Shown in pieces: positions 1 to 16,516 of a stretch of 20,029 nucleotides of DNA (positions are counted from its first letter, which is position 1; every line of letters begins with the position of its first letter). The position numbers and the translations under genes are program-made. The DNA is from a virus (taxonomy: Duplodnaviria > Heunggongvirae > Uroviricota > Caudoviricetes), in the IMG/VR virus record IMGVR_UViG_2687453449_000004, positions 1 through 20,029 of that record; one strand, given 5' to 3'. The notes under the pieces were generated by a model. It did no database searches, was not told the DNA's origin, and was given only the letters and a program-made list of their open reading frames with translations.

Positions 1-405
1 ATGGATCAGGTCGTTGTTTTTCAAAAGATGTTTGAGCAAGTGAGAAAAGAGCAAAACTTCTCCTGGTTTTATTCAGAATTAAAACATCACCGTATTGCAC
101 ATTACATTTATTATCTGGCTACGGATAACATCAGAATTATTACTCACGATGACACGGTTTTGTTATTAAGAGGAACCAGGAACCTGTTAAAAGTTAGTAC
201 GACCAAGAACCCTGCTAAAATAAAAGAGGCCGCATTGCTTCATATTTGCGGAAAATCTACATTTCGGGAATACTGTTCAACACTAGCAGGCGCGGGCGTT
301 TTCCGTTGGGTTACTGATGTTAATCATAACAAACGCAGTTACTACGCCATTGATAATACGCTTTTATATATTGAAGATGTAGAAAATAATAAACCATTAA
401 TCTAG
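1..405 (+). CDS. ycgX: Hypothetical protein, YcgX-like (host gene flanking iraM)
   Basis: 134-aa ORF in the track, AT-rich, directly upstream of iraM in the same orientation. This matches the ycgX-iraM-icdC order I recall for E. coli K-12. The ORF starts at window position 1, so the true 5' end may lie outside. Confidence 0.5.
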   Translation: MDQVVVFQKMFEQVRKEQNFSWFYSELKHHRIAHYIYYLATDNIRIITHDDTVLLLRGTRNLLKVSTTKNPAKIKEAALLHICGKSTFREYCSTLAGAGVFRWVTDVNHNKRSYYAIDNTLLYIEDVENNKPLI

Positions 406-620
406 CTAAAGTTGGATGCTTAAGAAATGCTTCATAATTCAGTAAGGCATTAGCATAATGGGAATAAAAGTACAGAGACTATCCCTATGGATGATAAATA
501 CTGTCCTTTTATTGCTACCCATAAATAATCACCATGCCAATACTATCAAATTGATATTTGAAATGTGATCACTTGACTTTCTATACGTTATTTTATAACG
601 GTTAATATATTTATAAAAAC

Positions 621-642
621 AACGGGTGTGCCATACGCCCGT
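621..642 (-). terminator. Hairpin (AACGGGTGTG..ACGCCCGTT) followed on the minus strand by a T-rich run; copy 1 of a duplicated about 50-bp module
   Basis: Inverted repeat read directly; T-run (revcomp of ATATTTATAAAAAC) follows the stem on the minus strand. About 50 bp, including flanks, closely resemble the module at 1462-1521. Confidence 0.4.
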
Positions 643-1100
643 TTCAATACTTAACGCACATGTGTTTTGGTTTAGTCATCATCCAGTTATATGTATTTTA
701 GCCAGGAACAGGTTAAACCTTTCCTATATAACTCAAAAATTGAAACCTTATTCTCATGTCATGCTTATATTCATTATTATCGTTATATAAAAAGGCAACC
801 ATAATGTTTAGCAAATTGGCACAAAGTAGCATAAAGGCTATGTTTTAATTACAGGATGTTCAGTCATTTGAATGTATAACATTATAGCTAAACAAATCTA
901 AAACGAAGTGAATAATTTATTGTTTTCACTAAATCTCATTTTGTTTAACATCCATTGAGATTCCTTGCTTTAAATTTTGTTTTATATAAGCAATCGTTTT
1001 AATTAATTTATTTTTTGAAGGGGTAATATACTCATATGCAAAATAAAGAAATGAACATCCAAATGAACTATATTAAATACCGTGGGATAAGACATAACAA

Positions 1101-1424
1101 ATGAAGTGGATAGTAATTGACACGATAATTCAACCTTCATGCGGCATATCTTTTTCAGCCATATGGGGTAATATGAAAATGATCATCTGGTATCAATCTA
1201 CTATATTTCTCCCTCCTGGCAGTATATTTACACCGGTTAAATCTGGAATTATCCTTAAAGATAAAGAATATCCTATTACTATTTATAACATCGCACCATT
1301 CAACAAGGATTTATGGAGTCTACTCAAAAGCAGTCAAGAGTGTCCTCCAGGAGAAAGCAAAATAACAAATAAATGTTTGCATAATAGTTGCATTATAAAA
1401 ATATGCCCATATGGGCTCAAGTAA
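1101..1424 (+). CDS. iraM: Anti-adaptor protein IraM (RssB antagonist)
   Basis: 107-aa ORF beginning MKWIVIDT; length and N-terminus match my recollection of IraM. It sits next to the icd 3' remnant as in K-12. A long AT-rich upstream region (406-1100) is consistent with a heavily regulated gene. Confidence 0.75.
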
Positions 1425-1480
1425 AGGGTTTTATATAAATATGCTCGATATGCTATTAATAATACCTACATAAATAAAAC

Positions 1481-1502
1481 AACGGGCGTGTTATACGCCC
1501 GT
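1481..1502 (-). terminator. Rho-independent terminator of the icd transcript (9-bp stem AACGGGCGT/ACGCCCGTT, 4-nt loop, T-run on minus strand)
   Basis: Perfect 9-bp inverted repeat 1481-1489/1494-1502, followed on the minus strand by GTTTTATTTAT, about 25 bp downstream of the icd-fragment stop codon. Confidence 0.6.
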
Positions 1503-1527
1503 TGCAATATTAAACACATGTAGTGAT

Positions 1528-1691
1528 TACATGTTCTTGATGATCGCATCACCAAATTCTGAACATTTCAGCAGTTTAGCGCCTTCCATCAGACGCTCGA
1601 AGTCATAGGTTACGGTCTTCGCATTGATTGCGCCTTCCATACCTTTAACAATCAGGTCTGCGGCTTCAGTCCAGCCCATATGGCGTAACAT
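1528..1691 (-). pseudogene. icdC: icd 3'-terminal fragment (icdC-like), marking the attachment-site junction of the prophage
   Basis: Minus-strand translation [54 protein letters not shown] matches the C-terminus of isocitrate dehydrogenase as I recall it. Homology stops abruptly at about 1691 and the upstream sequence is unrelated and AT-rich. Too short to appear in the ORF track. Confidence 0.85.
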
Positions 1692-1832
1692 TAGATTTAG
1701 AAAATTATTATATCCAATTGAATTAAAACAATTTTATACTTAACGAACATCTAAACTTGTTTTTTTACCTTCACCATAACTCGCTGATTTTGTATAGTTT
1801 ACGTAGCGTTTTGATAACCACTTTATGGCAAA

Positions 1833-2162
1833 ATGGAGGTTCGCTTGAAAACTTCTGTTCTTATCCAGAAATTAATGGAAATTGACAAAACTGTACTATT
1901 CGATGCGGACGTAGTGACCGGTGAGGAATGGTGGCCAACCCCGATTTCTCGTGTTTATCACAATCCGCCACATACTTATGTAGAATTTTAAACAGGTGAA
2001 CAATCTCAAAATGAATCTGACGAGCTAAGTGTTTATAGCGAATTACAAATTTGTGCACATCGAATGATGCAAATTAGAGATTTTGTGCAATCTAACGAGG
2101 GACTGAAACCTGAAAAAATTGTTTCGGAAATAAACATTCAAATTGAACGTATTAAAAAGTGA
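1833..2162 (+). pseudogene. Hypothetical ORF interrupted by one in-frame TAA (1989-1991)
   Basis: Single reading frame gives MEVRLKTSVLIQKLMEIDKTVLFDADVVTGEEWWPTPISRVYHNPPHTYVEF*TGEQSQNESDELSVYSELQICAHRMMQIRDFVQSNEGLKPEKIVSEINIQIERIKK*. Both halves look protein-like and the frame is maintained across the stop. Confidence 0.3.
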
Positions 2163-2227
2163 TGGCTGAAGCAATTCTGAAACACTAATTCATATTCTAT
2201 GTTATTCATACCAATGTGGATTTAACT

Positions 2228-2261
2228 CCCACCAACCCACCAACCCACCAACCCACCAACC
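2228..2261. repeat. Tandem octanucleotide repeat (CCCACCAA)x4 plus CC
   Basis: Read directly: cccaccaacccaccaacccaccaacccaccaacc, about 260 bp upstream of the restriction gene start. Confidence 0.9.
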
Positions 2262-2517
2262 ATGATTGGGCGGCGCAAGAAACTAATATCAATTAAAACA
2301 GCAAGTTATCAGTCTAAACAGAACACCAACGGGATGGAGGAGAGACAAAAAATATCCAATGAAACCGTAGCGCGTCAGCATTCAAAAGCGGGGTTTCTTA
2401 TTTTTACTTCACCAGTAACAAATACACTGTATCATAACTACATAAAAATGATTGTTCTGACTCAGATGAATTTCTTACTCTTGTAGAATGTCACTTAATG
2501 TTATTTATAGGTAAACA

Positions 2518-4407
2518 ATGAAATCCGAAACGCTAACCATCCAGCAAATTTTCCAAAATCAACGACAATATCGTGTTCCATTCTATCAACGTGCCTACGT
2601 ATGGACGCAACGAAACCAATGGTCAGCTTTGCTGGAGGATATCTTCGAAAAAGCACAGAGCCGACTTTCGGGAACAAAACCAACCCCTCATTTCCTCGGC
2701 GCGGTGGTGCTGGAACCTCAACTCAAAAACAGCTTGTTAGGTGTAGATACCATACATATTATTGACGGCCAGCAACGTTTAACCACTCTTCAATATATTC
2801 TGGCATCCATTCGATTATCATTGCGTGCTACAGGCCTTTCTGAACTGGAAGGGTTAGTATTGACTTGCTTGAAAAATACAAACGAAGCAACGATGAGAAA
2901 TAAAAAGGTAGAATGCTTCAAACTGTGGCCAACTTTTCGAGATCAAACTCATTTTATTCAAAGTCTTAATGTTGATAATATTGACGATCTCCGTAATGTA
3001 TTTTCTGATAGCTTCACGCAACATGGTACGTTACGTAAACATTTCAACCACCCGCCGTCACTAGAGGCATTATGGTTTTTTACTGAAGCCTTTATAAAAT
3101 GGATTAAAATAGAAAACCGCTCACCACAAGAAAATGCTGTAGCACTAATTGAGGCTGTCTTGACGGATCTGAAACTGGTAAGCATATTTCTCGAAGCTGA
3201 AGATGATGCCCAAATAATTTTTGAAACATTAAATGGGCGAGGAGCGGAACTTCATGCAACGGATCTTATTCGCAACTATATCTTTATGTGCGCTGAGCAT
3301 GAAAATATTAATACTATTGAATTATATGAAAATGAGTGGAAGATCTTTGAAGATAAATACTGGTCGGAAAAGCAACGCCGTGGACGTATTAATAAACCAC
3401 GCATGGAGTGGCTTGTACATGCGACATTGCAATCAGAAAGGCAGCGTGAAATTGATCTGTCTCGCCTTTACAATGAGTATCGTGATTATGTAAGTAAGGA
3501 CTTGCCTTCACAACGAGCAGATCTGCAAGTAAAGCGCCTCAAACAATATGCATCACAATATAAAGAATTGGTTGGTGGTTTTGGCACAACCCCAATCTCA
3601 CACTTTGGACATCGCATCGCAGCCTATGATGTGACGACACTCTATCCGCTTGCTTTGTTCATTTCGATAGCTAACATCGCCGATGATGAGAAAGCAGCCA
3701 TGTATAATGATCTTGTCTCCTACGTAGTACGAAGATCCGTATGTGGCCTGACGCCAAAGAATTACAACAATGTATTTATGAATGTATTGCGACACTTGTC
3801 TAAAACGGAAATTTCCAGTATTGAGTTACGTAATATCCTCAATAGCTTAAATGGCGAAGCCTCACGTTGGCCTGGGGACTCAGAATTTCTCAACGCTTGC
3901 ATCAATGCTCCACTTTATCCTGGCAGGCTCGACGCACCGAAAATGCGCTCAATGTTAACGGAACTTGAAAGAGAACTTTGTCGCCAAGTGAAGACAGAAA
4001 AGCCTGATGTTCCAAATCTTTCTAATCTCGATATCGATCATCTTATGCCTCAAAGTTGGTATTCCTGTTGGCCTCTCGAAAATGGTCATATGGTGACAAA
4101 TTCAGATGCTACGGTAATGAACCAAATTGTTCTGTCTGGAACCGATCTTACCCCTGAACAGCTACTGGTAAGGAAACGGCAACAAGCGATAGCTACGTTG
4201 GGAAATCTAACTTTGCTTAACCTTAGCGTAAACCGTTCCGTTCAGAATGCTGTATTTCTGAAAAAACGTGATGCTCTCATCGTCCACACCAATCTACGAC
4301 TGAACATACCACTTATACTTAAGGATAAATGGGATGAGAGTGAAATACTGGAGCGAGGTAAAAAGTTGGGGGAAATTGCATTGAAAGTATGGCCAAAATA
4401 CGATTAA
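2518..4407 (+). CDS. GmrSD-family type IV restriction endonuclease (N-terminal DUF262/ParB-like NTPase domain, C-terminal DUF1524 His-Me finger nuclease domain)
   Basis: 629-aa ORF. N-terminal motifs FYQRAYVW and IIDGQQRLTTLQ (DGQQR signature) and C-terminal DIDHLMPQS ... LGNLTLLNLSVNRSVQN fit the DUF262+DUF1524 fusion architecture. AT-rich relative to the prophage structural genes. Confidence 0.8.
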   Translation: MKSETLTIQQIFQNQRQYRVPFYQRAYVWTQRNQWSALLEDIFEKAQSRLSGTKPTPHFLGAVVLEPQLKNSLLGVDTIHIIDGQQRLTTLQYILASIRLSLRATGLSELEGLVLTCLKNTNEATMRNKKVECFKLWPTFRDQTHFIQSLNVDNIDDLRNVFSDSFTQHGTLRKHFNHPPSLEALWFFTEAFIKWIKIENRSPQENAVALIEAVLTDLKLVSIFLEAEDDAQIIFETLNGRGAELHATDLIRNYIFMCAEHENINTIELYENEWKIFEDKYWSEKQRRGRINKPRMEWLVHATLQSERQREIDLSRLYNEYRDYVSKDLPSQRADLQVKRLKQYASQYKELVGGFGTTPISHFGHRIAAYDVTTLYPLALFISIANIADDEKAAMYNDLVSYVVRRSVCGLTPKNYNNVFMNVLRHLSKTEISSIELRNILNSLNGEASRWPGDSEFLNACINAPLYPGRLDAPKMRSMLTELERELCRQVKTEKPDVPNLSNLDIDHLMPQSWYSCWPLENGHMVTNSDATVMNQIVLSGTDLTPEQLLVRKRQQAIATLGNLTLLNLSVNRSVQNAVFLKKRDALIVHTNLRLNIPLILKDKWDESEILERGKKLGEIALKVWPKYD

Positions 4408-4429
4408 TGCAATTAATAAAATGATTATA

Positions 4430-4453
4430 GCGGCCTTACATTAGTAAGGCCGC
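4430..4453. terminator. Perfect 10-bp stem-loop (GCGGCCTTAC-ATTA-GTAAGGCCGC) between the convergent restriction gene and pin remnant
   Basis: Inverted repeat read directly, 23 bp after the restriction-gene stop codon. Confidence 0.6.
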
Positions 4454-4632
4454 AACTCACTATTAAATCCTTTAATTTGCATCAAGAACAGCACTGTCAG
4501 CCCTAGGCTCTCGGACTTTGTACCGCTTATCTTGTCTTCAAAAATCAGCTCGCATCCTGCACAGTTCAACGCATTACGTTGTAGATCTGTGTTCTGGTCA
4601 TTTATTGATACGCGTACATAGCCAATAAGCAT
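4441..4632 (-). pseudogene. pinE: Pin/Gin/Hin-family serine DNA invertase, N-terminal remnant only (about 41 conserved residues)
   Basis: Minus-strand translation from ATG at 4632: MLIGYVRVSINDQNTDLQRNALNCAGCELIFEDKISGTKSE, the canonical invertase N-terminus including the catalytic Ser. It then diverges (SLGLTVLFLMQIKGFNSELRPY*) and stops. A full invertase would be about 190 aa. Track ORF 4441..4668 includes an upstream extension. Confidence 0.8.
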
Positions 4633-4658
4633 AGTGGATCCCTCTGACAAAAGCAGGA

Positions 4659-4994
4659 ATGATGCCATTTGCTCGTTATTTCTGCATTTTCATAAACGTT
4701 GGTTTGGGAGAAGGTGCTAACTGGGTTATGTTACCTAGAGGAATGATAATTCAGCGTGTTTATCTTGGATTTCCTGTCGGCACCAATGTAAGACACATAA
4801 CTTTCCCCCGGTCGTTTACAACAACGAACTATTCCATCTCAATTAACTGGAATGATATCGGTACTGTAACAACTGAAACACAATCTCCAGCAAATGTGGC
4901 GGTTGTTCATCAAACAAAATCATTAACAGGGGCCAGCATCTGGCAGGCAGGTCCCGGGGGATTTAATGTGGACATTATAGCGGTGGGGTATTGA
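4659..4994 (+). CDS. Tail-fibre C-terminal cassette lacking an N-terminal constant region (StfE-like silent alternative)
   Basis: 111-aa ORF that begins at or inside the pix-like site and ends 1 bp before a tfa gene. No fibre N-terminus and no obvious RBS. Placement matches the silent stf fragment in Din-type inversion systems. Confidence 0.5.
   Translation: MMPFARYFCIFINVGLGEGANWVMLPRGMIIQRVYLGFPVGTNVRHITFPRSFTTTNYSISINWNDIGTVTTETQSPANVAVVHQTKSLTGASIWQAGPGGFNVDIIAVGY
4687..4712. promoter_or_regulatory. pix/cix-like 26-bp invertase crossover site
   Basis: ttttcataaacgttggtttgggagaa; the reverse complement TTCTCCCAAACCAACGTTTATGAAAA has the two-half-site architecture (TTnTCnnAAACC) of Din-family sites. 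It lies about 55 bp from the pin start codon at the edge of the tail-fibre cassette. Confidence 0.6.
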
Positions 4995-4995
4995 T

Positions 4996-5487
4996 ATGTA
5001 CGTATGGAGCGCTAAAGCAAATGGCTTTTTCCCCATATCGGAGAAAGAAAAATTTGAGGCATCAGGTCTGTGGCCTGATGATGGTGTAATAGTCAGTGAG
5101 GAAGAACATAAAAAGTTATTTATGGATATTCCACCAGGAAAACAGATTGGAACACTGAATGGAAAACCAGCACTGATAGATATTCCTCAGCCGACCAAAA
5201 AGGAATTAATAGCTATTGCTGAAGTTAAAAAATCCCAATTACGGGAAAAAGCTGACAGTGAAATATCCTGGCGTCAGGATGCTGTTGATGCTGATATCGC
5301 AACTGATGAAGAAGCTACAACTCTCACCCAATGGAAGAAATACCGTGTGCTGCTGATGCGTGTTGATACGTCAACAGCACCCGATATTGAATGGCCTACG
5401 CCTCCGGCAGTTCAGGCCAGATGGCATCCGGCGCGGTGCTGGTATCTGTTGCCGTCACCGCGTCAATGTAATCCAGCACAGCGTTAA
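4996..5487 (+). CDS. Tail fibre assembly protein (TfaE-like), with an unusual C-terminal extension
   Basis: 163 aa; contains the conserved Tfa C-terminal peptide VDTSTAPDIEWPTPPA, then continues about 25 codons into the antisense of the convergent tfa gene. Confidence 0.7.
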   Translation: MYVWSAKANGFFPISEKEKFEASGLWPDDGVIVSEEEHKKLFMDIPPGKQIGTLNGKPALIDIPQPTKKELIAIAEVKKSQLREKADSEISWRQDAVDADIATDEEATTLTQWKKYRVLLMRVDTSTAPDIEWPTPPAVQARWHPARCWYLLPSPRQCNPAQR

Positions 5488-5998
5488 GGCGGGTTGTTTC
5501 TGCCTGCGTCAGTTTACGTCCGGCCTGCAATTTCAGCTGAATCAGACTGATGGAAGCCATTGCAGTATCAATCAGTGACTGGCGCTGTGCTTCTGCTGCA
5601 TCTACTGCGGCGCTATGCTGTGCTTCGGTATCCGTCACCCATTTCTCACCATCCCATTTATCGTATGGCGTTAACGGGGCGATAGTGGTTGTATTATCAG
5701 GGTAATCACCCGGAGCTGTGATTTCTTTTGATTCTCCTGTTTCGGTGCTAAAGACGATTTCACCGCGATGGTCTGGCACATATTCCCATGAGTTAAAATC
5801 TACAGATCGGCAGATTGCATAACCAGCTTTGTATGTGCCAGGGGCATCTAAACAGGAATATGCAGGGATACCGACACCCACAGCAAGATATTCAGTTGAT
5901 GTGGAAATATATTCCCGTGTTTCGCCATCATAGTTATAGACGGTAATATTCCCCGCCTTTGTAGCAATAAACTCGCTATTTAATACAGCGTTATCCAT
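5396..5998 (-). CDS. Tail fibre assembly protein (TfaP-like)
   Basis: 200 aa, N-terminus [33 protein letters not shown]-terminus TDTSTAPDAIWPELPEA, both typical of the lambda/Mu Tfa family. Start abuts the upstream fibre gene stop (coupled). Confidence 0.8.
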   Translation of the reverse strand: MDNAVLNSEFIATKAGNITVYNYDGETREYISTSTEYLAVGVGIPAYSCLDAPGTYKAGYAICRSVDFNSWEYVPDHRGEIVFSTETGESKEITAPGDYPDNTTTIAPLTPYDKWDGEKWVTDTEAQHSAAVDAAEAQRQSLIDTAMASISLIQLKLQAGRKLTQAETTRLNAVLDYIDAVTATDTSTAPDAIWPELPEA

Positions 5999-6939
5999 TA
6001 TGCAGCCCTCACGATATAGTTAAATGCAATATTCCGTGGACGGGTTTCATTTATCCCATATGCTGTTGTTCTCTGATTCCCGACAAAATATCCATTTGGA
6101 TTAGAAGATACAGAATAATCATCAAAATCAAGTGGGCTATCAGCACCCGGCGTCAGGCTTGCAATATATCCTCTTCCCATAACTTCTGATGCTGGTATTT
6201 CTTTTGTACGATAATCACTGACTCTGAAGAGCTGCCCTTGGTGGGTGTGTGATTCCACTCCTCCATTCTGAAGACTTAGCAAGGCACGTACAGCATCAAT
6301 ACCACGCCCGTCATCCCAGCCCCTAATAAACTCACCACGTAAATCAGGCAATTTATTTGTCGGATATTTAAAAATTACGTAGGTATGCGAAGGGCAGAGT
6401 TTGTTAAGCACACATTCGACGACGGTGTCGCCCCAGATACGCAGCGCGGAATCACAGGGATCGCCACATGTCATCCAGGTGCTGTTGGTGGCGGCTGGCA
6501 TGTTGACCTGCCAGTAATACCGCCATTCCGGCGCATTCACCGCGTCAGTACAGGACGATGAGCAGGTGAACGTGCTTTTGTCGTATCGCGTGATGGTGGC
6601 GTCTGGTCTGCCCAGGGCAGCAAGCTGTGCAAGGTAAAAATCCTCATTGATGCCGCCCGCCAGGTTAACCTTCGCATCCAGTCGTTGCTGACGCTGGCGA
6701 AGGGTCTGTGTTCCTGCGGGAATACATTCATCCGGCAGGCCGCACAGACGCTCCCAGCGATTTATCAGTTCGGTGGTGGTGCGCGGATCCAGCTCCCGCA
6801 TCAGGGCATCCGCACGCTGATGAACGCGGGTTAATGACTGTGCCGCACCGGCAATCGCCGGATCGCTGGCTGACCACGCCGGACCGGGCGGCAGCAGTGC
6901 CGACAACAGACGGATGTAATCATCGTTTGTCACGTCCAT
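5998..6939 (-). CDS. Mu gp48-like (DUF2313/YmfQ-like) tail protein continuous with a tail-fibre C-terminal tip domain
   Basis: 313-aa uninterrupted ORF. N-terminal about 195 aa ([22 protein letters not shown]...) resembles DUF2313 proteins. C-terminal part carries the tail-fibre motif [19 protein letters not shown]. Overlaps the upstream J-like gene by 10 nt. Confidence 0.7.
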
Positions 6940-7988
6940 GAAATCGTCCCCAGAACCGCCAGTTCATTTTTTGCAATGGAGATATTTTCCGCCGGTGCAA
7001 GCAACTGATGGCTGTATTCCCCGTTCGCACCGGAAATCGCTTCACTGATACGCGACACCTTCAGTTCTCCCTGCGGATAACCATCACGCAGCAGGAACGA
7101 ACGCAACTCCGCGGTGATGGCAGCCCGTATTTCCGGTGTATCCGGCGTCACACGGATATGAAAATCCACCGTATGCGCCACCGGCCTGAACACATACAAA
7201 TCAGAGCCTGCCACCGGGGCCAGTGGCCCGATATGTTGTCTTGCCGCCGTTTCCGTTGATTCTTCCGGAATGGGATTAATCAGGTCACTGCCGGCAATCA
7301 TCACACCGACAGTTCCCGTTCCCATCCAGTGACGGTATGTCCATGCGCGGGTAATGCCGGGCACTTCTTTAGCCCAGACGACATAGTCCCCGTCAGCCCC
7401 GCCCTGCGGCGTCCAGTAATACCGCTCAATGACGCGGGCGCGCCACGTTTCCAGATCTTCTGTATCAAATCCGCCTGTCAGGGTGTCAGTCACACCGGAA
7501 GACGGCAGACCATTCACCGGCGTGACCAGGATTAATGCCGTACCATCGTCAGCGTTACCGACCGCGCCTGCAGTTGAGCAGGCGATCGGCACGCGCAGGA
7601 CACCACCGGAGCTGGTTGCATCGGCAGTTGCCGTGTACTGAACCAGGTCATCGCGCTGAATCACGCTCCCGGCAGTCACCTTCAGGCCATCGCTGACACC
7701 TTCCCAGCGCATATACCCGCTGGCAGCCGTGGCCCCCTTGCGCGGACACCGTTTCATCGCAGCATGTCGCGCCAGCCAGGACTCATCGCACAGGTCAGGC
7801 AGCATGTTCATTGCCAGATAATCGATGTACCCGTAAACCGTATGCAGCGCCGCCGCATACACCTTTGCCCGCACGTCTTCATCCATGCGCCGGAGCGTGT
7901 CGCTGACGTCCAGCCTGGCGAATAAATCGTTACGGAGCATACTGATATTTTCTGCCAGCGTCGGGCGCTGAAATTCACTGTCCGCCAT
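6930..7988 (-). CDS. Baseplate J-like protein (Mu gp47 / P2 gpJ family; JayE-like)
   Basis: 352-aa ORF, GC-rich, positioned between gp46-like and gp48-like genes as in Mu tail modules. Confidence 0.8.
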
Positions 7989-8403
7989 GCGTTATCGCAC
8001 TCCACAGATCATCAAAAGAAATCATTACCGGTCCGTCACGACGCCAGAGAGTGATACTGTTACCCAGTTCATTAATCCCGGTGCGGCGGATATCCAGATC
8101 AATACGGGACACCACGCCGTCATCAATCATCCATTGCAGGCATTCGCGGATATATCCCCTTACCGTCTGCACCAGCTGATTGGTCAATTTGCTGCGCTGA
8201 AGCAGCCACAGTCGGGAGCCGTAACGGTCATTCTGTACCGCAGGCCAGGTATCCCCCCACCATCCCATCGGGACGTCGGCGTTGTCATCAGGCTCCGCCC
8301 GCCGCCAGGTAAACAGGGAAATCACCACGGCGCGGGTCAGCGGATCCAGCGGTGCGCTGGCGCAGGTGCGTTTACCGTTCACCGTCAGCCACAGTTCCAT
8401 CAT
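7975..8403 (-). CDS. Mu gp46-like baseplate protein
   Basis: 142-aa ORF with the motif GSRLWLLQRSKLT that I associate with the phage GP46 family; overlaps neighbours by a few nt (translational coupling). Confidence 0.6.
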   Translation of the reverse strand: MMELWLTVNGKRTCASAPLDPLTRAVVISLFTWRRAEPDDNADVPMGWWGDTWPAVQNDRYGSRLWLLQRSKLTNQLVQTVRGYIRECLQWMIDDGVVSRIDLDIRRTGINELGNSITLWRRDGPVMISFDDLWSAITHGGQ

Positions 8404-8948
8404 GCCTCCATCGCTTTATCAGGTTTGTCGGTGTTACTGCCCTGGCCGTTCTCTCTGTGACGATGCCCGTTATAGGCAAGCCGCATCGCTGACATGGTGG
8501 TGCCGCCGGAGTCGCACAGGTCTTTCACCTGTCCTGTCACTTCCAGATCCATTTCAAAACGTGCTTCAGGTGCATTGCGAAACGTGATCGTTTTACCTGC
8601 ACCGTCCACCACGATCCCCTCCCGGGTCAGCGTCACGGACTGCCCCTGATCGTCATAGACAGCCACCTCACCCGTCTGCAGCCCTTTCAGGCGGTAGCGC
8701 CGGTCCGACACCGTAACAACCACCGCATGAGAACGGTCGCCATCCGGAAACAACACCACCGCTTCCGCACCGCTGTTTGCCCTTGCGGTAAAACCGTAGG
8801 GTTCAAGATGTTCAACCCCGGCTTTGGGTTCACCGGCAATCAGGGACACATCCACGGTCTGACATTTCGTGGCGGCACTGATGCTTTTCACCACGGCCCG
8901 CCCAATCAGGCCGAGGAGTTGTCGCTGCATGGCTTCAATCGTCCTCAT
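8400..8948 (-). CDS. Baseplate assembly protein V / spike (Mu gp45-like)
   Basis: 182 aa; C-terminal MRLAYNGHRH-type motif and position between gp44-like and gp46-like genes. Confidence 0.7.
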   Translation of the reverse strand: MRTIEAMQRQLLGLIGRAVVKSISAATKCQTVDVSLIAGEPKAGVEHLEPYGFTARANSGAEAVVLFPDGDRSHAVVVTVSDRRYRLKGLQTGEVAVYDDQGQSVTLTREGIVVDGAGKTITFRNAPEARFEMDLEVTGQVKDLCDSGGTTMSAMRLAYNGHRHRENGQGSNTDKPDKAMEA

Positions 8949-10027
8949 CAGAACGGGTCCTCCTGTACTCTGGCTTTTTTCTTTTTCCGCGCGCCGGGGG
9001 CTTCGGGTTCAGGCAGATAAGCATCAGGTGGGCCGACACGGATTTCCGTCAGGGTGCCGTTCTGGTCCTGAGTAAACGTGACTTCCGAGACAAGCAGTTC
9101 GGTATTGTCGAAACCACAGACCGGATCGAAGACAATCACCCGCTGATTGGGCTGCCACAGCGTACCGTTACCCTGTCGCCAGCCCTGCACCACATAGGTG
9201 GTTTCATCCGTCCGCGCCGCCCGTTGTCGGGCTTCAAAGTCAGCACGCGCAATACAGCCTGCCCCCGTGGCCTGCCCTGTCTGCCTGATATACATCGGAC
9301 GGTAACGGGCAATAAATGCGTCCTCTGTGCGGGCCCGCAGCGCGGTGGTGGTGGCCTCACCGAAATCATCGTCGTTTCCGGCACGCTGCCCCGCCACCTG
9401 GTAAACAGAAAACCGCTCCCGGATACTCTTCTCCGTATCACAGGAAAGGATGTTTTCCCCAAGTACCAGCGCGGTATGTGCCCGCGTTGAGCCAATACCG
9501 CCAATCACCAGCCTGCCGTGCGGATCGTCGTAAGCCAGTGCCTGCTGCTGACCGAGTATTTTGTTGATTACCTCAATCACCGTTTCACCGTGATCAGGCT
9601 GGACGTCAGGAATAACACCCGACGGCGCACCGTTGTTCACCACCTCAATGCCGAAAGGCGCAGCAAGCGCCTGCGCAATCTGTACCAGCGATCGTCCGTT
9701 AAACTGTGTCGGTTCGGCTGCACAGTCAATCAGGTCAGCGGTCAGACTGCGTCCGGCAATACCGGTGCTGACCGAACGGGCATCGTAACGAACGGGCGTC
9801 GCCTCCACCCAGCCAGTGATCACCAGCTCATCACCAATCAGCACTTCCACTTTTGAACCGTTTTTAATGCGCGGCTGAAGCGTGGTGATACCCTCATCTC
9901 CCGGCCACTGGCGGGTGATCTCCACACTGAAATCCCGCGCCAGCCGTTCAATACCGGCACCGATGCGCACCGATGTCCAGCCATTCCACTCCCGGCCATT
10001 TACCCGTAGCGTGACGTTATCGTTCAT
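8948..10027 (-). CDS. Baseplate hub protein (Mu gp44 / P2 gpD-like late control D family)
   Basis: 359-aa ORF; size and position upstream of the V-like gene fit the gp44/gpD slot. Confidence 0.65.
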   Translation of the reverse strand: MNDNVTLRVNGREWNGWTSVRIGAGIERLARDFSVEITRQWPGDEGITTLQPRIKNGSKVEVLIGDELVITGWVEATPVRYDARSVSTGIAGRSLTADLIDCAAEPTQFNGRSLVQIAQALAAPFGIEVVNNGAPSGVIPDVQPDHGETVIEVINKILGQQQALAYDDPHGRLVIGGIGSTRAHTALVLGENILSCDTEKSIRERFSVYQVAGQRAGNDDDFGEATTTALRARTEDAFIARYRPMYIRQTGQATGAGCIARADFEARQRAARTDETTYVVQGWRQGNGTLWQPNQRVIVFDPVCGFDNTELLVSEVTFTQDQNGTLTEIRVGPPDAYLPEPEAPGARKKKKARVQEDPF

Positions 10028-10836
10028 TGCACTGGCACCTTCAGAGGGATCACCGGCACAAAGCCGGGATGTTTAATGGCATTACGCCGGATAATGTCCG
10101 CGTCACGCGCCGCGTTATCAAACCAGGTCGCCGCCAGCACCAGCGCGGGTAAAACCTCATCCGGCGTGCGCTGAATGATCCGTGCAGACTGTTCAAGGCG
10201 CGTGTTGATATCCGCATTCAGATCTGCTTTCACCCGGCGCAGCGCCAGAAATAGCGCATCACTGGTTGTACGGGACAACTCCTTATCAATTGCCGTATTC
10301 AGTGTGTCGCGAATGTCGGTCAGTTCCTCCCACGTTGGCAGGTCAACCGTGTTTTTCACCGCCGGTGCATTGTTCAGTGCCGGATGCGTGACGAAAGGCC
10401 AGCCGGTGCTCTGCGCGGGTGTTGTTGACTGCCCCACTGCAGCATTCTGCATCACCGCGGAAGTTGTTGGCGCAGGCAATCGGGTGACGGCATACGCCGC
10501 TTCGCTGATTGCGGTCGTACGAAGGGTGCTGGCAACCACGTTACGCTGCTGCGTCGCCGTGGCGGTGGTTTTACTGTCCGTTTTCCAGACGCCGCGCGGT
10601 TGCAGATCGCTGCCGAGGCTGACACCAGAAAGCGTTTTGATCATGGTGACCAGGTCGCTGGCGTTACCATAAAGGTGCTTCCCGGTACGCCACATTTTCT
10701 GCACCTGCTCAACAAAATTTTTGCCTGACGATGATGGCGTCACCGGTCTGCGCGGTTTCCTGCCAGGTGGTGGCACTGGTCTGGACAACCTTCGCCCATG
10801 TCCGGAACGCAACCGGGTATTGAGGCTCCACGCCAA
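10024..10836 (-). CDS. Tail protein remnant (Mu gp43 / tape-measure-like C-terminal region), probably 5'-truncated
   Basis: Track ORF of 270 aa whose first about 40 residues are Arg/Pro-rich low complexity and which overlaps the adaptor fragment by about 130 nt, so the annotated start is unlikely to be genuine. No sheath, tube or tape-measure genes lie upstream. Confidence 0.35.
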   Translation of the reverse strand: MAWSLNTRLRSGHGRRLSRPVPPPGRKPRRPVTPSSSGKNFVEQVQKMWRTGKHLYGNASDLVTMIKTLSGVSLGSDLQPRGVWKTDSKTTATATQQRNVVASTLRTTAISEAAYAVTRLPAPTTSAVMQNAAVGQSTTPAQSTGWPFVTHPALNNAPAVKNTVDLPTWEELTDIRDTLNTAIDKELSRTTSDALFLALRRVKADLNADINTRLEQSARIIQRTPDEVLPALVLAATWFDNAARDADIIRRNAIKHPGFVPVIPLKVPVQ

Positions 10837-10945
10837 AGTTATCCGCGGGCATATCCACCCGCTGGCGGATCAGGACGCGTTTATTCAGTTCACCGGGGTC
10901 CGGCAGAATGTAGGTTGCGCTGGTCTGCGCCTGACGAATTTTCAT
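10709..10945 (-). pseudogene. Head-tail adaptor (HK97 gp7-like) N-terminal fragment
   Basis: 78 aa (MKIRQAQTSATYILPDPGELNKRVLIRQRVDMPADNFGVEPQYPVAFRTWAKV...) resembles the N-terminal part of head-tail joining proteins but is shorter than the usual roughly 110 aa and is overlapped by the next ORF. Confidence 0.4.
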
Positions 10946-11265
10946 TGCGGAAAGTACCTGTACGGGCCGACAAGCCAGCCAAAACTCTGCGGCATGTCGA
11001 GTTTCTCCACTTCCGTAACCGACGAGCGGTTTTCGTAAAAATGGCTGATAAGCATCAGCATCCCCAGACGAATATCATCCGGCAGGTGCAGCCCGTCCGG
11101 ATCGCTGTCCGGAATGGTTTCATCCGGTGCATAGAGCTTCCGGTTCAGATACGTTTCCGTCCGCTTTTGCGCCGCACAGGCCAGCAGTTGCAGATGGCGG
11201 TCATCAGCATCGAAATCCTCATCCAGCCGGAGTTGGGCTTTAATCTCTTCCATTGTCAGAAGCAT
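10942..11265 (-). CDS. gp6-like head-tail connector protein
   Basis: 107 aa, N-terminus MLLTMEEIKAQLRLDEDFDADDRHLQLLACAAQKRTETYLNRKL typical of the gp6-like connector family. Confidence 0.6.
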   Translation of the reverse strand: MLLTMEEIKAQLRLDEDFDADDRHLQLLACAAQKRTETYLNRKLYAPDETIPDSDPDGLHLPDDIRLGMLMLISHFYENRSSVTEVEKLDMPQSFGWLVGPYRYFPQ

Positions 11266-11267
11266 AC

Positions 11268-11468
11268 TCAGCCCTCTTTACTGGTCGTGGCTTTTTTCTC
11301 TTTTGCCGCTTTACTGCTTTTTACACTGATTCCGCGCTCTGCTAACCCGGCCTGAAGTGCAATCTCCTGCACCCGGGCAGGAAGCGCCCCGTCGTCATAC
11401 TCACCGGCCCGAATGACCTCAACACGCATACCGTCCGGTGACCATTTCAGATCTTGTTTCAGGATCAT
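11268..11468 (-). CDS. Small hypothetical protein (66 aa), possible structural-gene remnant
   Basis: ORF only; tightly packed between the connector gene and the replication-gene remnant. Confidence 0.3.
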   Translation of the reverse strand: MILKQDLKWSPDGMRVEVIRAGEYDDGALPARVQEIALQAGLAERGISVKSSKAAKEKKATTSKEG

Positions 11469-11517
11469 GATTCTTCACCCGTCAGAACAGGGGGTGCGGT
11501 TCCGCGCCCCTGAGTGA

Positions 11518-11892
11518 TTACGCCGCTGCAATCTTCAGCAGTTTGATGGCCTGCGAATCGACCAGCATCCCGCCGGTGCGCTTGGTGGTATAAAAACCGA
11601 CAAACGGTTTATTGGTGTACGGGTCACGCAGAATGCGGGTGCCGATACGGTCAACGATGGTGTAACCCCGTTTGAAGTTACCAAATGCAATGGCTTTCGC
11701 ATCAGCGGCGATAGCCGTCCTGACGGTACTCATCCCCGCGCCAATCTGACGGGCAATGGTTTCAATTGATGGCCAACACACACCTTCGTCATTACTGAAA
11801 TCAGCCAGGCGGGCCATAATTGCCACGCTGGATAATTTCATGCCTGATGCAGCGCAACCATCCCATACATAGCCGGTTAATTTAGTGCTCAT
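11518..11892 (-). CDS. Helix-turn-helix replication-initiator-like protein (phage O / replisome-organiser N-terminal domain only)
   Basis: 124 aa containing LADFSNDEGVCWPSIETIARQIGAGMSTVRTAI, a winged-helix pattern typical of phage replication initiators. No helicase-loader or C-terminal domain follows. Confidence 0.45.
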   Translation of the reverse strand: MSTKLTGYVWDGCAASGMKLSSVAIMARLADFSNDEGVCWPSIETIARQIGAGMSTVRTAIAADAKAIAFGNFKRGYTIVDRIGTRILRDPYTNKPFVGFYTTKRTGGMLVDSQAIKLLKIAAA

Positions 11893-12061
11893 GACCGACC
11901 TCTATTTCCCTGAATTTACGACGAAACTGTTCGAGCGGGCTGAAGCACTCATGCTCATAGCCTTCGCGGAGGTAGATAACTCGTTGTGTTTCCGGCTCCC
12001 AACGAATGACTCTGACGGGCACTCCGTAGTGATCTTTGAACCAGCGGTTAACTTGTCGCAA
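11882..12061 (-). CDS. Small phage protein, DUF4222-like (TTG start)
   Basis: Frame not in the track's ATG set: TTG preceded by AAGGAG at 7-nt spacing, giving [59 protein letters not shown]. Stop overlaps the next gene's ATG (ATGAGCACTAA). Family assignment is from memory. Confidence 0.4.
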
Positions 12062-12240
12062 AGGACTGTCTCCTTCTGCCGGTTGAAATCACCCACAGCC
12101 CACTCAGCAAAGCTGTGGGTTACAATTTCCCTGTCACCTGGTACATTTACTGCATAGCAATACTCCACCTTCGCTTTTCCACCCGGTACAGGAAGCGCAA
12201 TCAGTTGCGAGCGACGGTAGTGTGTTGTTAAACTGTTCAT
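11902..12240 (-). CDS. Hypothetical protein; 3' half overlaps the DUF4222-like frame
   Basis: 112-aa track ORF. N-terminal about 55 aa look protein-like; C-terminal part is low-complexity and out of frame with the DUF4222-like gene. Confidence 0.3.
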
Positions 12241-12788
12241 GCGTTAGTTTCTCCACAGTCACGACACGCCACGGCGCCCGGAGCTGCACACTCGCGGGCG
12301 TCACTACTTTCTGAAACGCAAAAGATTTTGTAGACCAGTGCTGCATGCTCCTGCAGCTTCGAAATTGAGAGGTACAGCTCGTCGTTAATTGCTGTCTTCT
12401 CATGCGGTTCCACTACACCGTCTTCAATTGCTGAACGAATCTGTTTTGAATAACTGCCGATCTGTTCAATGACCTCCAGCAGGCGTTGGTTGATATCGGC
12501 GTTGTCCACATCCTCGACATCAGGAAGAGACACAAAGACGCCATTTGCAGACTGCGCCACAGCGTCAGCAATGAAGTGAGTTCCACCAGCACGTTGCAAA
12601 ACCATTGCCCATCCCAGCGGGAAAATCTGATCTCCATCGGCACGAAGGCGGTTAAATAATGCGTTCTCTGTTACATCCAGCCAGTCAGCAGCTTCAGCGT
12701 ACCCCCCCGGCAACGCTGCGATAGTTTTTCTGACAGCTTTCACGTACCACTCAGGCTGTTTTTCTACTTTCCAGTGATGCTTACCCAC
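12237..12788 (-). CDS. Phage regulatory protein (CII-like / YmfL-like)
   Basis: 183-aa ORF immediately downstream of cro in the rightward early operon position; coupled starts and stops. Confidence 0.45.
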
Positions 12789-13041
12789 GGTTCACCTCCT
12801 GTTCCTGTGGTTTAAACCCATTCTGGTTTTGGCTAGATTGAAAACGTGCCGGATAAAGAATCTGCATTTCGCTGACTTCACCCTTAAAAAAATTGGCTAA
12901 ACGTTCTGCAAGCTCGATAGATGGAATCTGCTCCAGCCTCTCAATACGACTCAACGTCGCTGGATTGACTTGAACACCCGCAGCAACATGCTGCAAAGTG
13001 AAACCATGCGCCTTACGCACATTTCGTAATGGTGATTGCAT
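12781..13041 (-). CDS. Cro-like HTH repressor (XRE family)
   Basis: 86 aa with HTH signature GFTLQHVAAGVQVNPATLSRIERLEQIPSIELAERLANFF; divergent from the cI-like gene. Confidence 0.75.
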   Translation of the reverse strand: MQSPLRNVRKAHGFTLQHVAAGVQVNPATLSRIERLEQIPSIELAERLANFFKGEVSEMQILYPARFQSSQNQNGFKPQEQEVNRG

Positions 13042-13138
13042 ACGCCCTCCAAATATTGCGCGTTATGCATGTTATTTCACGCAATTATTTTGCGCAAGTT
13101 GATTTGCTTATCACGCAATAAAGAAATGTAATAAACGC
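13042..13138. promoter_or_regulatory. Divergent cro/cI promoter-operator region (oR-like)
   Basis: 97-bp intergenic region containing ATTGCGCG, CACGCAAT (twice) and the palindrome TTGCGCAA. Confidence 0.6.
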
Positions 13139-13831
13139 ATGAACATAGGAAACCGAGTCAGACAACTTCGCCAAGCGAAGAACATGAAAATCGCCGATCT
13201 CGCTGAAGCGATAGGAGTAGATGCGGCGAACATCTCGCGCTTAGAAACGGGTAAGCAAAAACAATTTACCGAACAAACACTGAGTAATATTGCCAAGAGC
13301 TTAGGTGTTGATATTGCTGATCTCTTTACCTCTGCCCACAAAAGTAATACTGTATATAAAAACAGTAATAATGAGGATGTTGCGCAGGTGAAGGATGTGT
13401 TCCGTATTGAAATGCTGGATATCAGTGCCAGTGCGGGAAATGGCCTTATCCAGGGCGGTGATGTCATTGATGTGATTCATGCCATCGAATACAGAACTGA
13501 TAATGCTGTATCAATGTTCGGCGGACGACCAGCCAATCACATCAAAGTTATCAACGTTCGTGGGGACAGTATGTGTCCAACCATTGAGCCAGGAGATCTC
13601 ATCTTCGTTGATGTCAGCATCAATCAGTTTGATGGTGATGGTATATATGTCTTTGGTTTTGATGACAAAATATACGTTAAAAGACTTCAAATGATTCCTG
13701 ACAAACTGCTGGTGATTTCTGATAACCAGATTTACCGTGAATGGGGAATTACTAGCGAAAACGAACACCGATTCATGGTCTTTGGAAAGGTCTTAATCAG
13801 TCAGTCGCAAACCCTTAAGAGACATAATTAA
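13139..13831 (+). CDS. CI-type prophage repressor (N-terminal HTH, C-terminal S24/LexA-like autopeptidase); CohE-like
   Basis: 230 aa; HTH at the N-terminus, Ala-Gly (ISASAGNG) candidate cleavage site, Ser nucleophile in GDSMCPTIEPGD and Lys in YVKRLQ. Confidence 0.9.
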   Translation: MNIGNRVRQLRQAKNMKIADLAEAIGVDAANISRLETGKQKQFTEQTLSNIAKSLGVDIADLFTSAHKSNTVYKNSNNEDVAQVKDVFRIEMLDISASAGNGLIQGGDVIDVIHAIEYRTDNAVSMFGGRPANHIKVINVRGDSMCPTIEPGDLIFVDVSINQFDGDGIYVFGFDDKIYVKRLQMIPDKLLVISDNQIYREWGITSENEHRFMVFGKVLISQSQTLKRHN

Positions 13832-13849
13832 CCTCAATATCCCATCCAT

Positions 13850-13875
13850 CGGCCACCGAAAGGTGGCTTTTTATT
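13850..13875 (+). terminator. Rho-independent terminator after the repressor gene
   Basis: GCCACC-GAAA-GGTGGC followed by TTTTTA. Confidence 0.75.
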
Positions 13876-13884
13876 ACCTATAAA

Positions 13885-13940
13885 TTTGGATATCTCGCAA
13901 ATATCACTTGCATATCTCGCAATTTAATTTTATCTTTTGT
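13885..13940 (+). promoter_or_regulatory. Putative pL-like promoter with two direct ATATCTCGCAA repeats (oL-like)
   Basis: Repeats at 13890-13900 and 13912-13922 (22-bp spacing); TTGCAT -35-like and TATCTT -10-like hexamers at 17-bp spacing. Confidence 0.4.
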
Positions 13941-14089
13941 TCCAGACCAACTACAGGATTACAACAAAATCTGGTTGCAACACGGTGCATGTGTCGTAAG
14001 CAGTCAGTAAATGTCAAAAACGAACAGGCAGGACGCCCACGAAGTAGCCGCCTGGGGCATATGAAGTCCAGGATGATTCGTTAGCAACA

Positions 14090-14125
14090 AAAAAGCGCCC
14101 TACAGGACGCTTAGCTCTTTAACAA
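14090..14125 (+). promoter_or_regulatory. boxB-like hairpin followed by a boxA-like element (GCTCTTTAACAA): candidate antitermination (nut-like) site
   Basis: AGCGCCCTacAGGACGCT imperfect hairpin, then GCTCTTTAACAA at 14114-14125, matching the rrn/lambda boxA core; located in the leader of the early-left operon. Confidence 0.45.
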
Positions 14126-14170
14126 TCTGGTCCCCATCAACAAGTAACTGATAACTTGAGGAGATGTGAA

Positions 14171-14377
14171 ATGCACAAAACAGAACCCAAAATCGTCGCG
14201 CCTGGCTACACAGATGAGGAAATTTATGAGTGGATGACAAAGAAGCTGGCAGCTATAAACCAGCTTCGTGAAGTGCTGTCTTATCGACAGGAAACAATAG
14301 ACTCCTTAAAAAAACTGGATCAGGAAATCACGGTTTTATCACAGGATGTTACTTTAGATATTGTGCAGACAAATTAG
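14171..14377 (+). CDS. Small hypothetical protein (68 aa) in the early-left operon
   Basis: ATG at 14171 preceded by GAGGAG; the track ORF begins at an upstream TTG (14156). Not Arg-rich, so not an N-like antiterminator. Confidence 0.45.
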   Translation: MHKTEPKIVAPGYTDEEIYEWMTKKLAAINQLREVLSYRQETIDSLKKLDQEITVLSQDVTLDIVQTN

Positions 14378-14783: not shown

Positions 14784-14798
14784 TTCTTTTCCTTTTGC

Positions 14799-14850
14799 GT
14801 TGTTGGGGATAACCAGATTAACCGAATCCTTGTTGTTGGGGAATAACCAG
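14799..14850. repeat. Two direct repeats TTGTTGGGGA(A)TAACCAG in the upstream region of the 144-aa gene
   Basis: Copies at 14799-14816 and 14830-14850, read directly. Confidence 0.8.
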
Positions 14851-14859
14851 GTCCACCTC

Positions 14860-15230: not shown

Positions 15231-15251
15231 GATATGATGAGGAGCAGCAAA

Positions 15252-16504: not shown

Positions 16505-16516
16505 TTTGATTACTGC

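Follow-up and report, generated by a model that had tools for sequence, protein, structure and literature searches.

The whole 20,029-nt stretch of DNA analysed here is called the window. It comes from the icd locus of E. coli and contains a decayed prophage of the e14 family, with a Mu-type tail, whose tail-fibre switch has lost 438 bp. The deletion, its end points and the accompanying loss of a crossover site are observed. We hold with high confidence that this deletion fused ymfQ to the end of a fibre gene and removed one inversion site in a decaying e14-type prophage; the parts of this reading that concern slippage and a non-functional relic are the inferential ones. The features at the centre of the analysis are the following.

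4687..4712, no strand: the only remaining 26-bp crossover site, pin-proximal, TTTTCATAAACGTTGGTTTGGGAGAA (motif scans; site comparison with relatives)
5998..6360, minus strand: 3' part of the fibre gene, now fusion residues 194-313, equal to 144-263 in the intact Stf (263 aa) and ending NYIVRAA (alignment with Stf of L001)
6361..6939, minus strand: ymfQ, the Mu gp48 / DUF2313 baseplate wedge gene, residues 1-193/194 (PF10076; YmfQ of L001 is identical up to ...FKYP)
6361..6366, no strand: deletion junction with one copy of CGGATA, on the minus strand TATCCG = Tyr-Pro (6-base overlap of the blastn pieces; junction sequences)

The ORF at 5998-6939 on the minus strand (313 aa) is open from end to end, with no internal stops or frameshifts, and is composed of YmfQ residues 1-193 and fibre (Stf) residues 144-263. 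Its N-terminal part matches Phage_Mu_Gp48 (DUF2313, PF10076) at residues 12-192 (E = 5.9e-26) over profile positions 3-149 of 150, which makes it a full-length family match, and Mu gp48 in PDB entry 9ki1 is matched with E = 3e-11. Fibre-tip sequence begins immediately past residue 193. In E. coli LWY6 the intact Stf has 263 aa, and its C-terminal 120 residues exactly match the fusion; fibre tips 100% identical to that of the fusion occur on other fibre N-termini. The breakpoint 143/144 lies inside the Pfam Collar domain (PF07484; residues 108-155 of an intact relative's fibre, E = 8.6e-16) and likewise within the stretch that aligns with the T4 gp37/gp12 collar. For this reason the fusion no longer gives a Collar match; Pfam reports no fibre domain there beyond Phage_Mu_Gp48, and a complete collar domain ahead of the distal tip is absent. 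The view of the earlier note that a DUF2313 (YmfQ-like) gene is joined to a fibre tip in this ORF agrees with both Pfam and the alignment with relatives. The check that it proposed around codon 195 shows neither a stop nor a frameshift there, and the ORF is real.

The deletion was mapped to the base against three relatives (L001, L002, L005). Window positions 4508-6366 correspond to L001 3001-4859 and positions 6361-10733 to L001 5292-9664; missing in the window is L001 4860-5297, an in-frame gap of 438 bp in the alignment with the closest relatives. CGGATA is present in the relatives in two copies that form direct repeats 438 bp apart. The lost DNA comprises the last codon and stop of ymfQ, both gone from the window, the fibre constant region, the collar domain's first half and a crossover site. 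A deletion that joined ymfQ to the variable tip and took the second site, as had been proposed from the window's sequence, is thus what the comparison with the closest relatives yields.

The remaining site at 4687-4712 is identical to the pin-proximal sites of K-12 e14 and E. coli E4. At three mismatches or fewer, the 26-bp site has one match in the window vs none expected from shuffles, and its 16-bp core TTGGTTTGGGAGAAGG occurs once. An exhaustive Hamming scan of both strands of the whole window gave a runner-up with 9 of 26 mismatches. Both strands of 5400-7000 were also scanned with the window's site, the relatives' stf-internal site and gix/hix sequences; the best match had 10-12 or more mismatches, and no inverted copy lies within 5998-6939. 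Scans with the half-site and the 16-bp core gave no partner site either. The scans leave the single site at 4687-4712, and the deletion reading stands. The partner site, TTCTCCCAAACCAAGGTTTTCGAGAG, is located at L001 4980, L002 5124 and E4/L005 18479, and K-12 has the same sequence at L006 12779. It is inside stf in every relative examined and falls within the stretch deleted here.

The other genes of the invertible segment and its flank are as follows.

4441..4668, minus strand: pin serine invertase remnant in a 75-aa ORF (Pfam Resolvase, profile positions 2-54 of 145 only)
4659..4994, plus strand: pin-proximal 111-aa ORF with a leader (MMPFARYFCIFINVGLGEG) and a Gp53-like_C fibre tip (Pfam Gp53-like_C, E = 2e-5; E4 comparison)
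4996..5487, plus strand: tail-fibre assembly chaperone for the Gp53-like tip (Pfam Caudo_TAP; E4 comparison)
5396..5998, minus strand: TfaE-like tail-fibre assembly chaperone for the collar-type tip, intact, 200 aa (Pfam Caudo_TAP; E4 comparison)

The segment therefore keeps two variable tips in opposite orientation, both paired with a Tfa chaperone: the Gp53-like tip is on the plus strand and the collar-type tip on the minus strand. The 111-aa ORF is the unselected alternative tip, of the 'StfE2' type; a 194-aa fibre of E4 has the same ending, attached there to the fibre constant region. A search for a sigma-70-like promoter upstream of the 111-aa ORF gave no match. The chaperone of the Gp53-like tip has lost its stop by a single A to G substitution relative to E4 at window position 5424 (TGA at 5422-5424 to TGG), which extends its ORF from 142 to 163 aa; the same substitution causes the one V to A change in the TfaE-like chaperone. 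The orientation in which the segment is frozen is the one that Kirigo et al. 2025 tied to adsorption blocking in K-12, where the orientation giving StfE2 (pin-proximal leader and Gp53-like tip) is reported to block T2 adsorption (PMC12529663).

A full-length serine invertase (about 184 aa) is absent beside the segment. About 45 N-terminal pinE-like codons are left (window ~4497-4632; blastn aligns window 4497-4714 with K-12 L006 14821-14604), the first 136 nt of pin being retained and the remainder of the 75-aa ORF unrelated. The pin copy of the relatives is labelled in RefSeq as 'recombinase, incomplete, missing C-terminus'. In Gin/Hin systems the 5' part of the invertase gene contains a Fis-dependent recombinational enhancer. 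The constant fibre 5' region outside the segment is gone, Stf residues 1-143 being deleted and ymfQ abutting residue 144. Both orientations occur among close relatives that bear the same truncated pin, which fits the published action of PinQ, PinR and PinE in trans on the e14 P segment. Since pin was already truncated, inversion before the deletion would have relied on invertases supplied in trans. The idea of the earlier note that site loss locked the orientation holds as far as the single remaining site goes, with the refinement that the element's own invertase was truncated beforehand. The absolute lock is the loss of the crossover site, not of the resident invertase.

We propose that the ancestor had a standard Pin/P-segment switch, with ymfQ followed by a separate stf whose constant 5' part would have lain outside the invertible segment. 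That segment, 1.8 kb long, would have run between two inverted 26-bp sites, one in stf and one beside pin. At some point this segment would have been oriented with the collar-type tip and tfaE joined to the constant region. The next step would be the 438-bp deletion between the TATCCG repeats at the end of ymfQ and at stf codons 142-143. Because ymfQ and stf share a reading frame, with only the stop and one further codon between them, a single 313-aa ORF would have been left open. With one site remaining, no Din-family invertase could flip the segment, in cis or in trans, and the orientation would be fixed. The 6-bp repeat by itself suggests RecA-independent slippage or illegitimate recombination as the mechanism.

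Three other explanations of the junction were weighed against this deletion. Serine invertases can occasionally delete DNA between directly oriented sites, and the invertase itself could have made the deletion by aberrant recombination between the crossover site and a pseudo-site. No crossover site lies at either end of the deletion: the one inside stf (L001 4980-5005) is ~120 bp within the deleted stretch, and both ends are 6-bp direct repeats that bear no relation to it. We consider this origin very improbable and discarded it. An assembly or sequencing artefact, with ymfQ and stf separate in the true genome, could be suspected from the uniqueness of the junction among the complete genomes searched: a 44-bp junction-spanning query had no match in 5,426 complete E. 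coli genomes. The exact fusion protein is on record from a single isolate (E. coli O7, EFN8410794.1), besides a Logan assembly. Against an artefact, the identical junction, at 100% identity over window 2282-9761, is present in GCA_013048925.1 and in the Logan assembly of SRR8104484. These assemblies carry an extra ~8 kb deletion and one substitution relative to the window, so at least two distinct genomes have the junction, and no repeat longer than 6 bp is present there that could collapse an assembly. With the junction common to two structurally different genomes, an artefact was likewise discarded as very unlikely.

The earlier note also allowed for a second site too diverged to be spotted; the switch would then be intact and the long ORF a normal gene. 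The Hamming and motif scans give no candidate (next match 9/26 mismatches in the window, 10 or more in 5400-7000), and relatives 99-99.9% identical to the window hold a well-conserved partner site at the very position that is physically missing here. Judged by this alignment the possibility is refuted, and we leave it almost no probability. Nor is a DUF2313-fibre fusion the normal arrangement, either in close relatives or in a large protein search. The two genes are separate in K-12 e14 (ymfQ at L006 11914-12498, stfP at L006 12502-13131, with the partner site inside stf) and in E. coli LWY6, AHB3 and E4, the last 99.9% identical to the window. In a search of 5.8 billion sequences, coverage of the fusion by any one protein stayed at or below 63%. 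Deletion chimeras of ymfQ arose sporadically many other times in E. coli; DUF2313-fibre fusions occur only as sporadic single-isolate chimeras, namely P0011 and the stop-codon read-through P0008. An independent YmfQ::Gp53-like-tip fusion in another isolate (L007) also retains only one crossover site, and its surrounding tail module looks intact across the available 8 kb.

The fusion sits in a prophage that has lost DNA at several other points.

2518..4407, plus strand: GmrSD-type (DUF262/DUF1524) type IV methyl-directed restriction enzyme (Pfam GmrSD_N and GmrSD_C; PADLOC mREase_IV, 1516 bits, full length)
6930..7988, minus strand: intact Baseplate J / gp47 gene, preceding ymfQ in the late operon (Pfam Baseplate_J; RefSeq in relatives)
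10732..10733, no strand: second deletion junction, ~6.8 kb vs E4 (L005 23164-29958; blastn vs L005 and E4 annotation)
11518..11892, minus strand: chimeric ORF of a replication-protein N-terminus (HTH_36) and the C-terminal ~60 residues of the major capsid protein (Pfam HTH_36 23-62, Phage_capsid 63-121)

The GmrSD gene occupies the place that the 3' part of pinE and mcrA have in K-12 e14; similarity to K-12 breaks off at pinE codon 45 and restarts at icdC. The 6.8-kb deletion took the tape-measure, tube, sheath and terminator genes and truncated two others: the DNA circularization gene lost its 5' (N-terminal) part, and the head-closure gene is also partly gone. The chimera at 11518-11892 is the product of a third large deletion: similarity to E4 stops at window position 11717, within the capsid gene, and window 11708-12816 matches the oweE/ymfM/ymfL region of K-12. 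The prophage is without sheath, tube, tape-measure, portal and terminase genes. PADLOC and NCBIfam searches were run with the fusion, with the unannotated ORFs on the integrase side and with the 111-aa ORF; the only matches were to GmrSD and ECs1072. The ymfQ::stf deletion is ordinary prophage decay.

The 313-aa fusion is most likely a non-functional relic. An adaptive reading would have the fusion work as a baseplate-tethered receptor-binding module, or the orientation be fixed to keep a StfE2-like adsorption blocker beside GmrSD. The fusion is in frame, almost all of YmfQ and the whole distal tip are kept, the downstream tfaE is intact, the L007 fusion arose independently, and the window is fixed in the orientation equivalent to the K-12 StfE2 state. 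Fibre tips, on the other side, are trimers. T4 gp7, P2 gpI and Mu Mup48 are the proposed equivalents of the T6SS component TssG, and TssF-TssG and T4 gp6-gp7 each assemble 2:1 (PMC6300606), so that each wedge should hold one Mup48; in PDB entry 9ki1, Mu gp48 is present as six chains. A single gp48 per wedge thus stands against a trimeric tip, and the collar domain is halved. With sheath, tube, tape-measure, portal and terminase genes missing, there would be no particle to carry the fusion. The Gp53-like tip resembles its K-12 counterpart only distantly, the 111-aa ORF has no promoter-like site upstream, and the allele is confined to one clone. A functional role of this kind therefore appears very improbable to us. 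The same holds for a selected 'locked' state, in which a constitutive phage-adsorption block next to GmrSD, a working receptor-binding or decoy YmfQ::tip, or both would have been favoured; were it true, the L007 fusion would be convergent.

In annotation, the name 'DUF2313 domain-containing protein' needs a flag: the 313-aa product is a deletion chimera (YmfQ::Stf C-terminus), and its locus should be marked as a dead Pin/P-segment switch. The case shows cleanly, at base resolution, how a prophage loses DNA between short direct repeats while chimeric frames stay open, and it illustrates a switch that is truly fixed by the loss of a crossover site rather than of the resident invertase. Outside annotation its significance is small, and would be larger only if the frozen orientation confers phage resistance.

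The closest known system is the P segment of K-12 e14 (ymfQ-stfP-tfaP-tfaE-stfE-pinE). The window shares with it the icd / icdC-iraM-ycgX locus, the gene order, 96% identity of the ymfQ DNA, an identical pin-proximal site and two opposed pairs of tip and chaperone. K-12 e14 has two sites, a separate stfP with the constant region, a full pinE and mcrA, whereas the window is down to one site, lacks the constant region, and has the ymfQ-tip fusion, a 45-codon pin and GmrSD in place of mcrA; the allele of the Gp53-like tip also differs. In the Mu G segment with Gin and in the Din family (Cin, Hin, Pin), the constant 5' part of the fibre gene is outside the invertible segment, the alternative 3' parts and their chaperones are inside it between 26-bp inverted crossover sites, and a gp48-like gene is upstream. 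The layout proposed for the window's ancestor follows the same logic, and YmfQ matches Mu gp48; in contrast to these switches, the window retains a dead remnant without invertase, with one site and without the constant region. Defective-prophage chimeras such as YmfN of K-12 e14 (replication protein::terminase) and jayE/beeE are likewise in-frame or near in-frame fusions made by internal deletion, and the HTH_36::capsid ORF (11518-11892) is the window's second such deletion chimera. Unlike the other chimeras, the YmfQ 193 / Stf 144 junction is specific to one E. coli clone. Finally, the 111-aa ORF was compared with StfE2, the product of the PinQ-driven e14 inversion (PMC12529663), using a K-12 StfE2 reconstructed from the genome sequence. 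Both join a pin-proximal leader, at the GLGEG crossover motif, to a tip of the Gp53-like_C type. Their tips are only distantly related, and the state of the window is irreversible whereas that of K-12 is reversible; the likeness is one of sequence architecture.

An e14-family prophage of Escherichia coli with a Mu-type tail has its right end at 4441–7988. One flank of this prophage carries an icd remnant, iraM and ycgX (window 1–1700, 95% identity to K-12). The gene order is as follows.

2518–4407, plus strand: GmrSD type IV restriction gene, the leftmost of the listed genes
4441–4668, minus strand: stub of the pin invertase gene
4687–4712: 26-bp crossover site
4659–4994, plus strand: 111-aa ORF with a Gp53-like_C fibre tip
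4996–5487, plus strand: tail-fibre chaperone gene
5396–5998, minus strand: tfaE-like chaperone gene
5998–6939, minus strand: 313-aa fusion ORF
6930–7988, minus strand: baseplate J gene, with further Mu-like baseplate genes beyond
17451–18578: integrase gene, on the opposite flank of the prophage

The tail-fibre switch is one-sided, as the earlier note had observed: one crossover site is left, and the DUF2313 gene is fused to a fibre tip. The crossover site TTTTCATAAACGTTGGTTTGGGAGAA indeed occurs once in the window (4687–4712); with up to three mismatches allowed it still gives one match, none being expected from shuffled sequences, and when both strands are scanned exhaustively by Hamming distance the next best match has 9 mismatches of 26. 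Within 5400–7000, the best match to TTTTCATAAACGTTGGTTTGGGAGAA, to the stf-internal site of relatives, or to gix and hix sequences has 10–12 or more mismatches. A second site, inverted inside stf, is present in E. coli LWY6, AHB3, E4 and K-12. This stf-internal site, TTCTCCCAAACCAAGGTTTTCGAGAG, differs from the pin-proximal site at five positions and falls at the GLGEG motif (Stf residues 98–102). The LWY6 copy, at position 4980 of its locus (L001), lies within the interval missing from the window (4860–5297). The partner site was lost by deletion, not by erosion.

When 4400–8000 was searched by megablast against 5,426 complete E. coli genomes, 2,943 proved to have relatives of it; in all of the best ones the match was split into two or more pieces, with additional DNA in the record. 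In LWY6 (99.4% identity to the window), window positions 4508–6366 correspond to L001 3001–4859, and 6361–10733 to 5292–9664. The two pieces share six bases at their meeting point, and the window is short of 438 bp (146 codons) present in LWY6. Of the two explanations offered by the earlier note, the comparison supports a deletion that took the partner site with it; a second site too diverged to be spotted is rejected, since the scans find no partner and the site of the relatives is within the deleted interval. The hexamer CGGATA (Tyr-Pro codons on the coding strand) is present as a single copy in the window (6361–6366) and as two copies 438 bp apart in LWY6; this direct repeat makes slippage or illegitimate recombination the probable origin of the deletion. 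A deletion made by the invertase is ruled out, because neither end point coincides with a crossover site. In RefSeq, the LWY6 fibre gene (J4T81_RS24410, NZ_CP072204.1) is an incomplete pseudogene at 4761–5282. L001 4491–5282 translates without interruption to a 263-aa fibre with the same tip as in the window, and its listing as a pseudogene seems to be an artefact of annotation.

The 313-aa ORF was found as described, with a DUF2313 region followed by a fibre tip, and its reading frame is uninterrupted from start to stop. Phage_Mu_Gp48 (DUF2313) covers residues 12–192, no fibre domain was found by Pfam after this match, and the 19-residue string previously assigned to the tip begins at most five residues past its end. 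The fusion is composed of YmfQ 1–193 and residues 144–263 of the 263-aa Stf. In relatives, ymfQ and stf share one frame, with only a single codon besides the stop codon between them (YmfQ of LWY6 ends in VIFKYPE-stop), hence the single open frame after the deletion.

The closest relative, E. coli E4 (CP104516), is 99.9% identical across window positions 1–11717, and its prophage looks complete as annotated, with terminase, portal, capsid, sheath, tube, tape measure and baseplate genes. The P segment, the invertible tail-fibre segment between the two sites, is in the opposite orientation in E4, window 4694–6366 corresponding to 18497–16825 of the E4 locus (L005) on the reverse strand. There the constant region and the Gp53-like tip form a 194-aa fibre, and the collar-type tip adjoins the pin stub. 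AHB3 has the orientation of the window, both sites and a truncated pin; the pin truncation and the GmrSD gene are common to all three. The simplest reading is that inversion would have gone on after the pin truncation, through an invertase whose gene lies elsewhere in the genome. In agreement with this, PinQ, PinR and PinE are each reported to invert the e14 P segment (PMC12529663).

The GmrSD gene (PADLOC mREase_IV, 1516 bits) belongs to a stretch, 1702–4496, whose place in K-12 e14 is held by the 3' part of pinE and mcrA. At this end of the prophage, an exchange of one type IV restriction gene for another cut pin to 45 codons. A tandem repeat of an octanucleotide, (CCCACCAA)n, occupies 2228–2262, some 250 bp upstream of the GmrSD gene and directly 5' of the ATG of a 74-aa ORF (2262–2486). 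The window has one unit more than E4 (99.9% identity), and two short-read assemblies of a related isolate that shares the fusion end at 2251 and 2282; the copy number of the repeat may be variable. Four ORFs (14349–14783, 14934–15614, 18694–19590 and 19565–20029) gave no match in Pfam or PADLOC. Two of them belong to the prophage early region, one of these matching the NCBIfam ECs1072 family. The other two, of 298 and 154 aa, lie beyond the integrase gene on the icd side, a position analogous to the lit, ymfD, ymfE region of K-12 e14.

The prophage in the window can form neither a tail nor a head. The genes for tape measure, tube, sheath and terminator were lost in a deletion of 6.8 kb relative to E4 (junction 10732/10733), and similarity to E4 ends at 11717, within the capsid gene. 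The ORF 11518–11892 joins an HTH_36 replication-protein N-terminus in frame with the last ~60 residues of the major capsid protein. This join is a further large deletion relative to E4, and the chimera is the same kind of relic as K-12 YmfN, with a different junction. An A to G change at 5424 relative to E4 turns the stop codon of the plus-strand chaperone gene from TGA to TGG, and the ORF now runs to 163 aa instead of 142; on the opposite strand the change replaces V by A near the TfaE C-terminus.

A 44-bp query spanning the fusion junction had no match among the 5,426 complete E. coli genomes. The exact fusion protein was found in two records, an NCBI entry (EFN8410794.1, from E. coli O7, GCA_013048925.1) and a Logan assembly (SRR8104484). 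Both assemblies are 100% identical to the window across 2282–9761, lack 9762–17753 and differ by one base further on, so the window comes from a related but distinct genome. An assembly accident is ruled out as the source of a junction found in two such genomes. The O7 isolate has an extra ~8 kb deletion that starts within the gp44-like baseplate gene and ends within the integrase gene, with a 7-bp overlap at the junction (7179–7185 and 2479–2485 in its two assembled loci, L003 and L004; window 9755–9761 / 17754–17760). It is a later decay stage of the same prophage.

In a search of 5.8 billion proteins, no sequence covered more than 63% of the fusion, the matches taking either its YmfQ part or its tip part; with separate genes in the relatives, the fusion is not the normal arrangement, a possibility the earlier note had raised against itself. 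The same search contains many other single-isolate ymfQ chimeras, with partners including baseplate J, gp46, sheath, tape measure, portal, capsid and RusA. P0011, a 254-aa YmfQ(1–192)::Gp53-like-tip protein, is an independent fusion in another E. coli isolate (6001–6765 of L007, a locus from Logan SRR17847155). This locus keeps the pin-proximal crossover site only, and its tail module looks intact across the 8 kb available. Another, P0008, is a plain read-through of the ymfQ stop codon. The chimeras are what would be expected to remain after deletions and point mutations at random in a prophage family that is both widespread and in decay, and gene callers reveal those that are in frame.

The fusion probably does not work, given its breakpoint in the collar, the lost constant region and the stoichiometry. 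In the intact fibre, Collar (Pfam) spans residues 108–155, the alignment with the T4 gp37 tip (2XGF) starts at residue 90, and residues 104–163 align with the collar of T4 gp12. The breakpoint is within this domain, Collar no longer scores in the fusion by Pfam, and the N-terminal constant region of the fibre is absent in full. Fibre tips of the collar kind are trimers, as in the T4 gp37 and gp12 structures. PDB entry 9ki1, which has six Mu gp48 chains, gives a match between Mu gp48 and YmfQ. T4 gp7, P2 gpI and Mu Mup48 have been proposed as counterparts of the T6SS protein TssG, and both TssF–TssG and T4 gp6–gp7 form a 2:1 assembly (PMC6300606), which implies one gp48 per baseplate wedge. One gp48 per wedge versus trimeric tips argues against a working fusion.

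The switch in the window no longer works, and its orientation is fixed. This orientation sets a short pin-proximal leader before the Gp53-like tip, likewise the arrangement of StfE2 in K-12, reported to block T2 adsorption (Kirigo et al., PMC12529663). The tip in the window has only distant similarity to the K-12 tip, no promoter-like site was found upstream of the 111-aa ORF (4659–4994), and nothing beyond the shared arrangement supports a function for it. The locus is the P-segment switch of K-12 e14, itself related to the Mu G/Gin system, with three defining parts lost: the invertase, the constant region of the fibre and one of the two sites. It is a case of ordinary prophage decay in an already known system.
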